Assembly: GCF_003334305.1 (NCBI RefSeq)
Contig: NZ_QOWS01000010.1
Strand: one strand, 5' to 3'
Length of the DNA: 64,000 bases
Origin: Escherichia coli
GTDB lineage: Bacteria; Pseudomonadota; Gammaproteobacteria; Enterobacterales; Enterobacteriaceae
In this document: positions 5,816-30,859 of the stretch, piece by piece
Numbering within the stretch: position 1 is the first letter of the stretch
How the letters are laid out: every line of letters begins with the position of its first letter
Translations under genes and position numbers: made by a program
The notes under the pieces: generated by a model
Databases searched by the model: none
What the model was told of the DNA's origin: nothing
Seen by the model: the letters and a program-made list of their open reading frames with translations, nothing else

Positions 5816-6498
5816 GCTTCCTCCTGCAACTGCCCGTTCACCAGCCGTAAGCAGCGGTCGCAGCGTGCCGCCAGTTGCAGGTCGTGGGTCACCATAATCA
5901 ACGTGGTGCCATGTTCACGGTTGAGGGAAAACAGCAGGTCGGCAATTTTATCGCCCGTCTGGCGGTCAAGGTTGCCGGTGGGTTCGTCGGCAAACAGCAC
6001 ATCAGGTCGACCATTAAAGGCTCGTGCCAGCGCCACTCGTTGCTGTTCACCGCCGGAAAGCTGTGCCGGAAGATGATCCAGACGTTTACCCAGCCCTAAC
6101 TGTTCGAGCAACGCTTTCGCCCCGTTACGACTTTCCGCGCTACTCTCACCGCGCAGCAGAGCCGGAAGCTCGACGTTTTCCAGCGCGTTAAGGGTAGGAA
6201 TTAACATAAATGACTGAAAAACAAAGCCGACGTGCTTCGCGCGCAACTTTGCCCGCGCTTCTTCGTCCATATTATGTAGCGGTTGTCCCACCAGACTCAC
6301 TTCGCCACTGCTGCCGTCATCAAGCCCGGCGAGGATCGCCAGCAAGGTTGACTTACCCGATCCCGACTCGCCCACCAGTGCGATGGTCTCGCCACGTTTG
6401 ACAACCAGCTCAACTCCGGTGAGGATGGAGAGTTCATGCTCCCCCTGACCGACGGACTTCTTAAGATGATGAACTTCAACAATGTTTTCCGCTGGCAT
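5812..6498 (-). CDS. ybbA: ABC transporter ATP-binding protein, 228 aa
   Basis: ORF track; Walker A GESGSGKST, ABC signature LSGGEQQR, Walker B LFADEPTGNLD. Confidence 0.95.
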   Translation of the reverse strand: MPAENIVEVHHLKKSVGQGEHELSILTGVELVVKRGETIALVGESGSGKSTLLAILAGLDDGSSGEVSLVGQPLHNMDEEARAKLRAKHVGFVFQSFMLIPTLNALENVELPALLRGESSAESRNGAKALLEQLGLGKRLDHLPAQLSGGEQQRVALARAFNGRPDVLFADEPTGNLDRQTGDKIADLLFSLNREHGTTLIMVTHDLQLAARCDRCLRLVNGQLQEEA

Positions 6499-24549: not shown

Positions 24550-25854
24550 TTAACGATCCCAGTAAGACTCTTCCAGGCTGTCTTCACGCTCCGGCAAGCC
24601 GCGCGTTAAACGAGGTGAATGCTGGTTCAGTACCTGATAGCTCACACGGTTAGCATATTTACACACCTGCGCTAACGATGAATAAGTTAACCAGGTGAAT
24701 TTATGTTTGCTGGAGTTTGGTACGTTGCTACGATGGTAGCTGTTGGCGGTAATGTCATGCAGCAACGCTGCCAATGCGCCATCCCCCGCTCCATTAGTGT
24801 TCATGATTTTTTCCGTCCCGCCCATGTACGGCGCAATGTGCGAATATACACGCAGCGGATTCTGGCAATCCTTGTGGCGCATGGCGCGGCTAAACTCATA
24901 CTGGTTGAATTCCGCTATAGCGCCCGGCAGCAGCGGATGCTGGGTTTTACGTTTCGCTTCGTCTTCGGTAAAGCCCGCCATATACAAGCCGATTGGCCCG
25001 GCGGTGCACAGCACCAGATCTACCCAGTCCAGCGCCTTGTCAGATGCCAACAACGGATCGCTTTCTCCGGTCAACGCTTCGGCTTCATCTTCGTTCATCG
25101 CAAGGATAGAGACGTGGTCTTTGAGGAATTGCTGCCACCACTGCGGATTCTCGGCAATGACAAACTTAGTTCCCAGCGTCAGCACCACCGGTACGTTATA
25201 TTTCTTCGCGTACTCAATGGCTTTCATGGTTGCTTCCGGCATGGGTTCACCCGGCTTGCAACGCACCAGATAAGAGGTGAGAACCAGAGCCGAGGCTCCG
25301 GCAATCACATCTTCCGGAATACTTTCAGCCCGCAGCTGGTTCATGTGGCCAGGGCTGATAGCAAAGGTACGTTCCCCGGACTCGCCAATCAGCGTAAAGC
25401 AACGACCAATCGGGCCATCCACGCCTTGTAGATAGTTAAGATCGGTACGGCTGGAGGTGTTACACAGGTAACGATAGGCATAGCTGCCAATTTCAATATT
25501 GCTGCACATGACGCCCAGCAGCACCGAACGGTCGTCCGCGAGCACCGAGTAGTTATGCATGGTGTTACCAATGGTGCCACCCGCAAACTGATGGGTAATC
25601 AGGTTTTTCTGTTTTAGTTCCTGATAAAGCGCTTCGGCTACATCATCCTCAATCACCAGTGAATGCCCGGCGCTTAATCCATAACGCTCAATGAATTCAT
25701 CATCCACTTTCGCTTCAATATCGACCAGCGTCTGGTCAATACCTACGACCCAGGCGGCGCTGGTTTCGTTTTCTGGCTGGAATTGCTGAAGCAGCGGATC
25801 GCGTGCATTTACAGGGAAGTAATGTTTGGATTTACGTTTACCGGGAAATTTCAT
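24550..25854 (-). CDS. gsk: Inosine-guanosine kinase, 434 aa
   Basis: ORF track; PfkB-family carbohydrate kinase; recognised Gsk sequence. Confidence 0.95.
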   Translation of the reverse strand: MKFPGKRKSKHYFPVNARDPLLQQFQPENETSAAWVVGIDQTLVDIEAKVDDEFIERYGLSAGHSLVIEDDVAEALYQELKQKNLITHQFAGGTIGNTMHNYSVLADDRSVLLGVMCSNIEIGSYAYRYLCNTSSRTDLNYLQGVDGPIGRCFTLIGESGERTFAISPGHMNQLRAESIPEDVIAGASALVLTSYLVRCKPGEPMPEATMKAIEYAKKYNVPVVLTLGTKFVIAENPQWWQQFLKDHVSILAMNEDEAEALTGESDPLLASDKALDWVDLVLCTAGPIGLYMAGFTEDEAKRKTQHPLLPGAIAEFNQYEFSRAMRHKDCQNPLRVYSHIAPYMGGTEKIMNTNGAGDGALAALLHDITANSYHRSNVPNSSKHKFTWLTYSSLAQVCKYANRVSYQVLNQHSPRLTRGLPEREDSLEESYWDR

Positions 25855-26005
25855 GGTTGTTTTTACGGGTGGTTAACTGAGCGGCGAATGTTAACACAAT
25901 CTGACGGGAGCGCGCGAGACGCAGCCAGTTTCAATATCAGCAGGCGGGATCGCATTTTCATGGCAGTGGTTCCTTACAATGACGTAATTTGAAAGGAGTT
26001 TTTGT

Positions 26006-26965
26006 ATGAAGCCGGAAAACAAACTACCTGTTCTGGACCTTATTTCTGCTGAAATGAAGACCGTTGTGAATACTCTTCAGCCGGATTTACCGTCCTGGCC
26101 CGCAACGGGAACGATTGCTGAGCAACGACAGTATTACACGCTTGAGCGCCGATTCTGGAATGCGGGCGCTCCAGAAATGGCAACCAGAGCTTACATGGTT
26201 CCAACAAAATATGGGCAGGTGGAAACACGTCTCTTTTGTCCGCAGCCAGATAGCCCGGCGACGCTATTTTATTTGCATGGAGGCGGTTTTATTCTCGGCA
26301 ATCTCGATACCCACGATCGCATCATGCGCCTGCTGGCAAGCTACAGCCAATGTACGGTGATTGGTATTGATTACCCCCTTTCACCTGAAGCGCGTTTTCT
26401 GCAAGCGATAGAGGAAATTGTGGCTGCTTGTTGTTATTTCCACCAGCAGGCGGAGGATTATCAAATCAATATGTCCCGCATTGGCTTTGCCGGTGATTCC
26501 GCAGGTGCCATGCTGGCGCTCGCCAGTGCGTTGTGGTTGCGTGATAAACAGATCGATTGCGGTAAAATTGCGGGTGTTTTGCTGTGGTATGGGCTTTACG
26601 GATTACGGGATTCCGTGACTCGTCGTCTGTTGGGCGGTGTCTGGGATGGCTTAACGCAACAGGATTTGCAGATGTATGAAGAGGCGTATTTAAGCAACGA
26701 CGCGGACCGCGAGTCACCGTATTACTGTCTGTTTAATAATGATCTCACTCGCGAAGTTCCGCCCTGTTTTATTGCCGGGGCGGAGTTCGATCCGCTGCTG
26801 GATGACAGCCGTCTGCTTTACCAGACGTTAGCGGCGCATCAGCAGCCCTGTGAGTTCAAACTCTACCCAGGTACGCTGCATGCCTTTTTGCATTATTCAC
26901 GAATGATGAAAACCGCCGACGAGGCTCTTCGCGACGGCGCTCAGTTCTTTACCGCTCAGCTTTAG
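26006..26965 (+). CDS. aes: Acetyl esterase (alpha/beta hydrolase, HSL family), 319 aa
   Basis: ORF track; HGGGF oxyanion motif, GDSAG nucleophile motif. Confidence 0.95.
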
Positions 26966-27924
26966 CGATACGCGGCAACAAGATTAGCCATCATTTCGAT
27001 ATGTTCCGGCGTGGCATTAAGCGCTGGAATATATTCATATTTTTTCCCGCCGGCACCGAGGAAGACCTCACGGTTTTGCTCGGCAATCTCTTCCAGCGTC
27101 TCCAGACAATCCGCAGCAAAGCCCGGGCACATCACCTGTATATGACCTACGCCTTTTTCTCCGAGCATTTTCAGCGTTTCGTCGGTATAAGGCATCAGCC
27201 AGGGTTCCCGGCCAAAGCGCGACTGAAAGGTCATCATCACTTTTTCCGGTGCCATCCCCAGTGCGGAAGCCAGTTCGCGAGTCGTTGTGCGGCAACGTTG
27301 CGGGTAATCATCGCCTTCATCTGCATAACGCTGGGGAATGCCATGATAAGAGAGCAGCAGCAGATCCGGTTCGCCATGTTTGGCAAAAGAAGCGCGTACG
27401 CTGTTCGCCAGTGCATTAATGTAATCGTGGTTATCGGCGTAATCACGAATAAACGATATCCCCGGAATGCTACGTTTGCGCGCCAGAATGCGTGCCAGTT
27501 CATCCCATACCGCACCGACCGTAGAACAGGAGAATTGCGGATAAAGCGGCAGCACCACAATATGATCTACATGCTCTGCCAGGAGTTCATCGACGGCGCT
27601 TTCCAGTGATGGCGAGCCGTAGCTCATGCCCAGCGCTACGGGCGTATCCGGTAAACGTTGTGCCAACGCCTGCTGTTGCTGGCGGCTGTAAACCATCAGC
27701 GGCGAGCCGTCTTCCATCCAGACCGAGGCGTACAGCTTCGCCACACGCGGCGAGCGCAGCGGCAAAATCACGCCGCGCAGCAACGGCCACCATAACAACC
27801 GTGAGGTATCAACCACGCGTCTGTCGCTTAAAAATTGTTTCAGATAGCGTTTTACCGCTTCAGGTGTGGGGGCATCGGGCGTACCCAGGTTTGCCAGCAG
27901 GATACCGGTTTTAGTCTGACGCAT
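26962..27924 (-). CDS. hemH: Ferrochelatase, 320 aa
   Basis: ORF track; recognised HemH sequence; 3' end overlaps aes 3' end by 4 nt. Confidence 0.96.
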
Positions 27925-28040
27925 TACCGCCTCTTATCGATTCAACTTGTTGATAATTGTAGCGGAAAAGTGAGGAAGAAGAACTAATTGCTGTGAGAGG
28001 TCAAATCAGAAAAAGGAATAGCGCAGATTGAGGTTTTTGT

Positions 28041-28066
28041 AAAAGGCCGAATGAATATCCGGCCTG
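28041..28066 (-). terminator. Probable adk intrinsic terminator
   Basis: Reverse strand AGGCCGG-atattcat-TCGGCCT followed by TTT; about 95 nt downstream of the adk stop. Confidence 0.5.
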
Positions 28067-28088
28067 AGATTGCTGATAAGTTTGCTTG

Positions 28089-28150
28089 TGCGGGCCTGTT
28101 CCCCTCACCCTAACCCTCTCCCCGAGGGGGCGAGGGGACTGTCCGTGCGC
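28089..28150. repeat. GC-rich imperfect palindromic intergenic element (BoxC-like)
   Basis: gcgggcctgttcccctcaccctaaccctctccccgagggggcgaggggactgtccgtgcgcgc; ccctctcccc / ggggcgaggg form a 10-bp inverted repeat with one mismatch; directly 3' of the adk stop. Confidence 0.5.
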
Positions 28151-28159
28151 GCTTTCGAA

Positions 28160-28876
<717 letters not shown>

Positions 28877-28952
28877 TCAAGAAAGGCACCTGAGGCTGAA
28901 ACGGTTAATGGCGAGATAATTTGCGGAAAGTGCAGATGATGAAAAGAAAAAT

Positions 28953-28978
28953 GCCGGATGACACAAAGGTCATCCGGC
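28953..28978 (-). terminator. Intrinsic terminator of htpG
   Basis: Reverse strand gccggatgac-ctttgt-gtcatccggc followed by ATTTTTCTTTTC. Confidence 0.8.
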
Positions 28979-28984
28979 ATGACA

Positions 28985-30859
28985 TCAGGAAACCAGCAGC
29001 TGGTTCATACGACGAATAAACAGGTTCGGATCTTCCAGCGTGCCGCGTTCTGCCAGCAGCGCCTGATCCAGCAGCAGTTCTACCCACTCGCTGAACTTCG
29101 CTTCATCTTCAGTATCTGCCGCACGTTTCACCAGTACGTGATCCGGGTTCAGTTCGAAGATGTATTTCACTTCTGGCACTTTCTGGCCCGCCGCAGCGAA
29201 CAGTTTCGCCATCTGAGTGCTCATTTCGTCCGCGTCGGTCGAAACGATCGCTGGCGTATCGGTCAGACGGTGAGTCAGACGGACATCTTTCACGCGCTCG
29301 CCGAGCAGGGCTTTCACACGGTCGATGAACGGAGTCAGTGCTTTCTCCGCTTCTTTCGCGCTCTCATCAACTTCGTCAGCCAGTTTTTCCAGCGACTCGT
29401 CAACTTTAGACACCGACTGGAACGGTTTACCGTCGAACTCAGTCAGATAGTTCATCATCCACTCATCGATGCGGTCGGAAAGCAGCAGAACTTCGATGCC
29501 TTTCTTACGCAGCAGTTCCAGGTGTGGGCTGCTCTTCGCTGCCGCATAGCTGTCTGCAGTGATGTAGTAGATTTTCTCCTGCCCTTCTTTCATGCGGGAA
29601 ACGTAGTCTTCCAGAGACACGGTCTGCGCAGAAGAATCGGTATAAGTAGAAGCAAAACGCAGCAGTTTGGCGATCGCTTCCTGGTTAGCGAAATCTTCCG
29701 CCGGACCTTCTTTCAGTACCAGGCCAAACTGTTGCCAGAAGGTCTGGTATTTTTCCGCGTCGTCTTTCGCCAGTTTTTCCAGCATTTGCAGCACACGCTT
29801 GGTCAGCGCATTGCGCAGGTTACGCGTTACCGTGCTGTCCTGGAGGATTTCACGGGAAACGTTCAGCGGCAGATCGCTGGAGTCAATCAGACCACGCACG
29901 AAGCGCAGATAGTTCGGCATGAACTGTTCTGCGTCGTCCATGATGAACACACGCTGGACGTACAGTTTCAGGCCGTGTTTATGATCACGGTTCCACATAT
30001 CCCACGGAGCCTGGGACGGGATGTACAGCAGGCTGGTGTACTCCTGCTTACCTTCAACGCGGTTGTGGCTCCAGGTCAGCGGATCATTAAAGTCGTGGGC
30101 GATGTGTTTGTAGAACTCTTTGTACTCTTCATCGGTGATTTCCGACTTGTTACGAGTCCACAGCGCCTGCGCTTTGTTGATTTTCTCCCAGGAGATAACG
30201 GTTTCGCCGTCTTTCTCTTCGCGTTTTTCGATCTCTACCGGCAGCGCGATATGGTCGGAGTATTTGCTGATGATGGAACGCACGCGCCAGTCATCGAGGA
30301 ACTCGTCTTCGCCTTCACGCAGATGCAGGGTGATTTCAGTACCACGATCTTCTTTGGTGATGTCGGCAACGGTATATTCACCTTCGCCAGCCGATTCCCA
30401 GAAGACGCCGTTTTCTGGTTTTTCGCCTGCCGCGCGAGTACGCACGGTCACTTTGTCGGCCACGATAAACGCAGAGTAGAAACCAACACCAAACTGACCG
30501 ATCAGCTGGCTGTCTTTCGCCTGGTCAGAACCCAGGGATTCGAGGAATGATTTGGTACCGGATTTAGCGATAGTCCCCAGATGGTCAATCACTTCGTCGC
30601 GGGTCATCCCCACGCCGTTATCGGAGATGGTCAGCGTGCGCTTGTCTTTATCGAAAGAGACACGAACGCGCAGTTCGCCATCACCTTCGTACAGGTCCGG
30701 GTTAGATAGCGCACGGAAACGCAGCTTGTCCGCCGCATCGGAGGCGTTAGAGATAAGCTCACGCAGGAAGATTTCTTTATTGGAATAGAGAGAATGGATC
30801 ATCAGGTGCAGAAGCTGTTTCACTTCTGACTGAAAACCACGAGTTTCTTGTCCTTTCAT
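28985..30859 (-). CDS. htpG: Hsp90-family molecular chaperone, 624 aa
   Basis: ORF track; GHKL ATPase N-domain (ELISNASDA); recognised HtpG sequence. Confidence 0.98.

Follow-up and report, generated by a model that had tools for sequence, protein, structure and literature searches.

Gene organization at the aes–hemH junction

The window, which is the whole stretch of 64,000 nucleotides of Escherichia coli DNA analysed here, contains the convergent genes aes and hemH, which meet tail to tail (Table 1). Direct reading of positions 26960-26967 gives CTT TAG CG, and the stop codons TAG on the plus strand and TAA on the minus strand share bases within a tetranucleotide that fits the 4-nt convergent motif [T/C]TA[A/G]. 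The NCBIfam equivalog NF007547 covers residues 1-319 of Aes with a score of 623 bits, and the equivalog TIGR00109 covers residues 1-319 of HemH with a score of 446 bits. Since both equivalog matches are full-length, the ends of the two genes are real rather than products of annotation. The entire window corresponds to the reverse complement of positions 1214493-1278492 of E. coli A7 (NZ_CP028767.1) with 0 mismatches, and the RefSeq annotations of strain A7 and of MG1655 show the same 4-nt overlap. In MG1655 (NC_000913.3), hemH is annotated at 498055-499017 (+) and aes at 499014-499973 (-). A 61-nt query spanning the junction is found in 4,855 of the 5,426 complete E. coli genomes at a threshold of at least 99% over 61 nt, which means that these junctions are identical. 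The original prediction that the 3' ends of aes and hemH overlap by 4 nt is thus borne out by the sequence, the open reading frames, the equivalog matches and the RefSeq annotation.

Table 1. Features of the aes–hemH region, in window coordinates
Feature	Position	Strand	Remarks	Basis
C-rich, G-poor (rut-like) stretch of hemH-sense RNA	26500..26704	-	C/G 1.8-2.6	sliding 78-nt counts
aes (acetyl esterase), 319 aa	26006..26965	+	stop TAG 26963-26965	ORF list, NCBIfam, RefSeq
Tail-to-tail overlap TTAG with interlocked stop codons	26962..26965		4 nt	direct sequence reading
hemH (ferrochelatase), 320 aa	26962..27924	-	stop TAA = complement of 26962-26964	ORF list, NCBIfam, RefSeq
Candidate aes terminator or 3' stem-loop	26998..27045	+	hemH codons 294-309	predicted from terminator scan
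C-rich, G-poor stretch of aes-sense RNA behind the hairpin	27028..27184	+	C/G 1.6-2.0	sliding 78-nt counts

Many long overlaps in databases have turned out to be misannotations (PMC2478687), and an annotation or sequencing error that places one of the two stop codons wrongly would mean that the genes do not overlap at all. However, stop codons are unambiguous, unlike start codons, and the equivalog matches extend to the last residue. Thousands of genomes sequenced independently share the identical junction, and the C-termini of the orthologous proteins agree. On the strength of the orthologous C-termini, the equivalog matches and the identity of the junction, the artefact explanation is rejected, its probability being negligible. 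The overlap itself is already known, because it is present in every reference annotation, belongs to a class that has been counted and appears in a catalogue of transcript overlaps.

Origin of the four-base overlap

The hemH gene ends in ...TAT CGC TAA, and the aes strand therefore reads TTA GCG ATA at this place, with TAG lying one base out of register. The overlap is 4 nt long because the complement of hemH CGC TAA (TTAGCG) supplies TAG in the aes reading frame. Since TAG is present in that phase, the aes frame cannot extend more than 4 nt into hemH, so that the length of 4 nt marks a limit rather than the result of tuning. In agreement with this, the modal length of convergent overlaps is 4 nt, which has been attributed to the matching of stop codons on complementary strands, and 58 convergent overlaps have been counted in E. 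coli (PMC2174442). Among well-characterised genes of 338 genomes, 3,035 overlaps (7%) are convergent (PMC2478687). The annotation of the 64-kb window contains 11 convergent gene pairs, namely one overlap (hemH/aes, 4 nt), one pair with zero gap (cueR/ybbJ) and nine pairs separated by gaps of 30-211 nt.

Placed by its own sequence features, the aes/hemH pair shares with the short convergent stop-stop overlaps described previously (PMC2174442; PMC2478687) the opposite strands, the length of 4 nt, the motif and the location of terminators within the coding sequence of the partner, and it differs from them in nothing essential. These observations lead to the interpretation, to which we assign a probability of about 0.75, that aes/hemH is an ordinary stop-against-stop overlap between two genes of housekeeping or accessory type that are unrelated to each other, a by-product of the way stop codons are read on opposite strands, and not a dedicated regulatory device. 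As a member of the commonest class of convergent overlaps, it matters little. What is added here to this known class is the comparative picture only, in which the end of HemH stays in place, that of Aes moves and the junction varies.

Variation of the junction among related genera

The overlap of 4 nt is found in E. coli, three further Escherichia lineages, E. whittamii, Salmonella enterica, C. sedlakii and C. freundii. The overlap is 26 nt long in E. marmotae, 23 nt in Shimwellia and 15 nt in Pseudocitrobacter. The two genes abut (0 nt) in a Citrobacter MAG and are separated by a gap of 1 nt in Trabulsiella and of 2 nt in C. amalonaticus. The comparative sample combines 8 loci from a contig scan with HemH homologue searches that were dominated by Citrobacter clusters. 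The end of the 320-residue HemH protein is fixed, with ...AAYR* in nearly all orthologues examined and ...YR* in most taxa. A comparison of the Aes orthologues has shown that the Aes C-terminus varies, giving proteins of 319 to 327 residues with unrelated tails. Since the HemH end is fixed and the Aes end is variable, the tight junction is old, the exact overlap is not conserved, and the junction shifts through the position of the aes stop codon. Relatives in which aes enters in another phase or meets an earlier stop codon would thereby arrive at other overlap or gap lengths. The recurrence of the 4-nt form in Escherichia, Salmonella and two Citrobacter species could also reflect conservation rather than a boundary that has been reached repeatedly.

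The association of aes with hemH is not universal. The locus lacks aes in Raoultella/Klebsiella electrica, Scandinavium and a related isolate, where gsk follows hemH co-directionally at a distance of 63-75 nt. In Pluralibacter, Edwardsiella and Proteus, aes is located at other loci. In Proteus hauseri, aes overlaps a different convergent gene, which is NUDIX/NrtR-like, again by 4 nt, indicating that the 4-nt state arises readily. In the assembly of the E. albertii type strain, the aes reading frame is broken and hemH is intact.

Probable termination of hemH transcripts within aes

Since there is no intergenic DNA, a terminator of either gene can only be placed within the other gene, into which the transcript runs antisense. 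More generally, the Rho-independent terminators of convergently overlapping genes must sit in the coding sequence of the partner, and intrinsic terminators have been predicted for 23 of the 116 genes that form the convergent overlaps of E. coli (PMC2174442). The expectation that the transcripts of both genes extend antisense into the partner is supported by the missing spacer, by the listing of the pair as an excludon (PMC12288877) and by a Rho termination region antisense to aes (PMC7815308). The accompanying statement that there is no room for a terminator stands in part: intergenic DNA is indeed absent, but a terminator-like hairpin for aes lies within the hemH coding sequence, as described in the next section.

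DirectRNA-seq with and without bicyclomycin, evaluated in 800-nt comparison windows and hence at coarse resolution, has mapped Rho-dependent termination to a region at MG1655 499332 (+) that is classed as antisense to aes, with a Rho score of 4.07 and a p value of 6.2e-10 (Adams et al. 2021; PMC7815308, supplementary file 2). The read counts upstream and downstream of this position are 79 and 24, respectively, without bicyclomycin, and 422 and 522 with bicyclomycin (PMC7815308). A window position equals 525979 minus the MG1655 position, and a check has shown that this map is ungapped over 24579-30479. MG1655 499332 therefore corresponds to window position ~26647, some 315 nt beyond the stop codon of hemH. 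The rut-like stretch of the hemH-sense RNA (Table 1) lies 260-470 nt past the hemH stop codon, is antisense to aes and encloses the published Rho peak. A C-rich, G-poor composition is expected of a Rho loading site.

Neither fold tests nor cross-genus comparison reveals a conserved hairpin downstream of the hemH stop codon that could act as an intrinsic terminator. A hairpin at 26912-26938 on the minus strand, followed by GGUUUUCAUCAUU, was considered as a hemH terminator and rejected, as its z score relative to shuffled sequences is -1.3 and its structure is not kept across genera. The 3' end of aes shows no synonymous constraint, with an observed/expected ratio of about 1.0-1.1. Both negative findings agree with a factor-dependent mode of hemH termination, and an intrinsic hemH terminator inside aes is rejected in favour of Rho. 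It is likely that transcription from hemH continues antisense through ~300 nt of aes before Rho stops it at the C-rich, G-poor stretch. Peters et al. (2012) reportedly described how Rho ends read-through or antisense transcripts in E. coli. The hemH read-through into aes resembles the Rho-dependent antisense termination analysed by Adams et al. (2021; PMC7815308) in that it is likewise bicyclomycin-sensitive and in that its site lies on a C-rich, G-poor stretch; it differs in that no discrete processed 3' end is reported for hemH in the same work.

A candidate aes terminator within hemH

A terminator scan identifies a hairpin on the plus strand, 33-80 nt past the aes stop codon. Its stem consists of 15 bp, including 5 G-C pairs, in which 26998-27012 pairs with 27021-27035 around an 8-nt loop, and it is followed by CATATTTTTT. 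The T-run occupies 27040-27045, so that the U-run of the RNA begins 4 nt after the stem, which makes the match to a terminator imperfect. A stem-loop and a U-run are thus both present downstream of the aes stop codon, as expected from the sequence of an intrinsic terminator, with the imperfection just described. The folding energy of the hairpin is -21.1 kcal/mol, which gives a z score of -4.1 relative to dinucleotide shuffles. Across the 64 kb, 7.4% of the 61-nt windows fold at least as stably, and hence the hairpin is remarkable only when its own A+T-rich composition is taken into account.

Comparison among taxa shows a strong hairpin with aes and a weak one without it. Its folding energy is -19 to -25 kcal/mol in 14 aes-bearing taxa of five genera and only -10 to -12 kcal/mol in three aes-less taxa. 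The HemH proteins of the aes-less taxa contain NAEH or DSAH instead of TPEH, and the CCGG core of the stem is consequently missing there. The aes-less controls are these three taxa only, all from one neighbouring clade, so that whether a taxon has the hairpin is confounded with its phylogenetic position. In all cases, the hairpin is more stable on the aes-sense strand (-21.1 versus -8.3 kcal/mol here and -23.3 versus -14.5 kcal/mol in MG1655), because several of its pairs are G.U. When the codons of 14 taxa are aligned, synonymous variation reaches its minimum for the whole hemH gene at codons 294-311. After correction for amino-acid composition, the synonymous observed/expected ratio of codons 294-309 is 0.62, with a p value of 0.004 when these codons are treated as a pre-specified set; as a minimum of the whole scan, the dip has a p value of 0.18 and does not reach significance.

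The hairpin could also arise by chance from the HemH residues EYIPA.../...PEHIE, encoded by codons 297-309, in which case aes transcripts would end deeper in hemH by Rho or by collision. The mean folding energy of synonymous HemH recodings is already -13.7 kcal/mol, with 3-4% as low as -21.1 kcal/mol (p about 0.035). In a covariation analysis, the hairpin contains no compensatory double-sided change and is indistinguishable from column shuffles. C. freundii, Pseudocitrobacter and C. sedlakii have a degraded U-run, and a comparison of the stems shows that the hairpin is missing in Shimwellia. Term-seq under three growth conditions has given no curated 3' end for either gene within MG1655 498800-499399 (PMC7815308, supplementary file 1), and the C-rich stretch of the aes-sense RNA at 27028-27184 behind the hairpin could offer Rho an alternative site. 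However, an accidental origin does not readily account for the conservation of the stem in the 14 aes-bearing taxa, where the changes are one-sided and pair-preserving and 96.7% of the cells are paired, nor for its systematically higher stability on the aes-sense strand and its loss in the three aes-less taxa. In addition, synonymous variation in hemH is lowest at the hairpin, and no bicyclomycin-sensitive region antisense to hemH, that is, on the aes strand, has been called (PMC7815308). Taken together, these observations make the accidental origin a possible but rather doubtful explanation.

The hairpin is accordingly a plausible terminator of aes or a plausible protective 3' stem-loop, for which we see about even odds. 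The aes transcripts may end at the 15-bp hairpin and its U-run in hemH, or may be trimmed back to it, and the C-rich, G-poor stretch behind it (Table 1), judged by its base composition, is a possible back-up Rho entry site for aes transcripts. The aes end predicted at the U-run corresponds to MG1655 498,933-498,939 (-). The missing aes 3' end in the Term-seq data may reflect a low level of aes expression. The supplements of SMRT-Cappable-seq mention neither aes nor hemH, and a permissive Rfam search of 25500-29000 finds no known RNA family.

Because the hairpin lies inside hemH and upstream of the hemH stop codon, it cannot terminate hemH transcription and could act in one direction only. A bidirectional terminator was considered and rejected, since the hairpin precedes the hemH stop codon by 33-73 nt and since the hemH-sense RNA forms it far less stably and lacks a U-run after it. 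Bidirectional intrinsic terminators between convergent genes were reportedly described by Ju et al. in 2019. The aes/hemH pair resembles the systems with such terminators, or with collision-assisted termination, in that it is likewise convergent and has a stem-loop near the gene boundary. It differs from bidirectional terminators in that the hairpin of the hemH-sense RNA is followed by GAAAUGAUGGC and not by a U-run, and in that its folding energy is -8 to -14 kcal/mol versus -21 to -23 kcal/mol on the aes-sense strand.

The only mildly new element at this locus is therefore a candidate segment of hemH with a dual use in coding and termination. A tentative hypothesis, which we regard as less probable than the terminator or stem-loop function itself, is that the hairpin has been selected as a dual-use element that encodes a conserved segment of HemH on one strand and serves as the aes terminator or 3' stem-loop on the other. 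If this were true, the aes signal would have shaped the codon choice of HemH as well as its TPEH motif, which contains the CCGG core, in place of the NAEH or DSAH found without aes. The locus would then be a clear case of a protein sequence that is constrained by a transcription signal of its neighbour.

Overlapping transcription and its possible consequences

The hemH–aes pair is listed among the 165 convergent excludons that occur in 50% or more of 58 RNA-seq samples from MG1655 (PMC12288877, Table 1). The pair shares with the other members of this ExcludonFinder map of E. coli the convergent arrangement and the complementary 3' regions. Mutually exclusive expression through transcriptional interference or RNase III is the defining feature of excludons; unlike this, hemH–aes is listed from RNA-seq coverage alone, and hemH and aes have no known functional relation. 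Because the listing criterion is that coverage crosses a threshold of 50%, any spacer-less pair passes as an excludon (PMC12288877).

The original prediction also raised mutual antisense regulation of the esterase and the ferrochelatase. In such a functional excludon, the overlap would be maintained for mutual repression of hemH and aes by collision of RNA polymerases and/or by RNase III cleavage of the duplex, and the two genes would be expressed inversely. Apart from the listing itself, this explanation is favoured by the presence of tight junctions in every genus with the gene order gsk-aes-hemH-adk, which makes the overlapping transcription old, and by experiments documenting that E. coli RNA polymerases collide head-on where genes converge (Wang et al. 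2022; bioRxiv 10.1101/2022.10.23.513370). However, the listing has the coverage threshold as its sole basis, and validation of double-stranded RNA with p19 is not feasible for convergent pairs (PMC12288877). Moreover, ferrochelatase and the esterase are functionally unlinked, and aes is missing beside hemH in Raoultella and Scandinavium, has other loci or partners in Proteus, Edwardsiella and Pluralibacter, and is disrupted beside an intact hemH in the E. albertii assembly. The 79 DirectRNA-seq reads on the hemH strand in the 800 nt upstream of the Rho site without bicyclomycin (PMC7815308) imply that collisions should be rare. A search of the literature has found no reciprocal expression, RNase III cleavage or phenotype specific to the hemH–aes pair. 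We thus consider maintenance of the overlap for mutual repression improbable.

The low number of reads on the hemH strand and the lack of a called aes 3' end suggest that both genes are transcribed at a low level, and any regulatory consequence of the overlap is therefore taken to be weak. The picture that emerges for the ordinary stop-against-stop overlap is that of a spacer-less pair in which one transcript end is probably set by the embedded hairpin and the other by Rho, with a possible contribution of polymerase collisions. The 3' ends of the aes and hemH mRNAs would then be complementary over roughly 80-300 nt.

The aes/hemH pair is a convenient and well-conserved test case for the question of whether, in a convergent pair that has no spacer, one transcript ends at an intrinsic hairpin within the coding sequence of the partner and the opposing one through Rho, and also for the question of whether such embedded signals constrain the codons of the partner gene. 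For engineering of the locus, such as deletion of aes or addition of a C-terminal tag to HemH, it is relevant that the last ~30 codons of hemH carry the candidate aes 3' end signal and that transcription of hemH reaches ~300 nt into aes.

Transcription entering hemH

The adk intrinsic terminator ends exactly at window position 28040, which corresponds to MG1655 coordinate 497939, where a Term-seq 3' end has been mapped on the (+) strand of that genome (Adams et al., PMC7815308). Since this mapped end lies on the upstream side of hemH, 116 nt from the gene, adk and hemH are largely separate transcription units. A second Rho termination region has been reported at MG1655 498060 (+), corresponding to window position ~27919 (-) at the very start of hemH, and treatment with bicyclomycin raises the reads downstream of it from 51 to 535 (Rho score 4.0, p 1e-17) (PMC7815308). 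This increase suggests that Rho itself attenuates transcription entering hemH, within the hemH leader or first codons.

The 2.4-kb query finds a median of 4 matching places per E. coli genome. These multiple matches are probably caused by the palindromic repeat downstream of the adk stop, which appears to be similar to the boxC-type repeats dispersed through E. coli genomes.

Features of the window, with coordinates and strands
Feature	Sequence	Window position	Strand	Remark
adk intrinsic terminator	AGGCCGGAUAUUCAUUCGGCCUUUUA	28040-28066	(-)	end coincides with published Term-seq 3' end
G+C-rich palindromic repeat	CCCCTCGCCCCCTCGGGGAGAGGGTTAGGGTGAGGGG	28098-28140	(-)	between adk stop and adk terminator
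ybbJ/cueR junction		11830/11831	ybbJ (+), cueR (-)	ybbJ ends at 11830 and cueR at 11831; abutting, zero gap
tesA/ybbA junction		6469-6498	divergent	30-nt overlap of 5' ends

Variation at and around the aes/hemH junction

The present strain differs from MG1655 at window position 27025 by a synonymous change in hemH, where a proline codon reads CCA in place of the CCG of MG1655. In the aes-sense hairpin, a candidate aes terminator or 3' stem-loop inside hemH, this change converts a G-C pair to G.U, which is still paired, and dG goes from -23.3 in MG1655 to -21.1. On the hemH-sense strand the same change produces a new C.A mismatch, with dG going from -14.5 in MG1655 to -8.3.

In the aes gene of Escherichia albertii NBRC 107761 (L010 2501-3461), a single inserted T at alignment column 638 leads to a premature TGA after 224 codons, and hemH of this strain is intact. 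The broken aes is either a pseudogene or a draft-assembly error. At the loci of Raoultella/Klebsiella electrica (L019), Scandinavium (L020) and Enterobacteriaceae C34A (L021), adk, hemH and gsk are co-directional, with hemH-gsk spacing of only 63-75 nt, and aes is absent. Therefore, either the Escherichia/Salmonella/Citrobacter lineage gained aes through an insertion that placed it tail-to-tail with hemH, or the taxa lacking aes have lost it. In Proteus hauseri, aes lies at an unrelated locus, where it again shows a 4-nt overlap with a convergent gene (NUDIX/NrtR-like, 237 aa; L018 3466-3469).

Other gene pairs of the window

The published list of overlapping transcription between neighbouring opposite-strand genes in MG1655 also includes the ybbJ/cueR and tesA/ybbA pairs, and likewise ybaY-ybaZ and ybaA-pdeB (PMC12288877).
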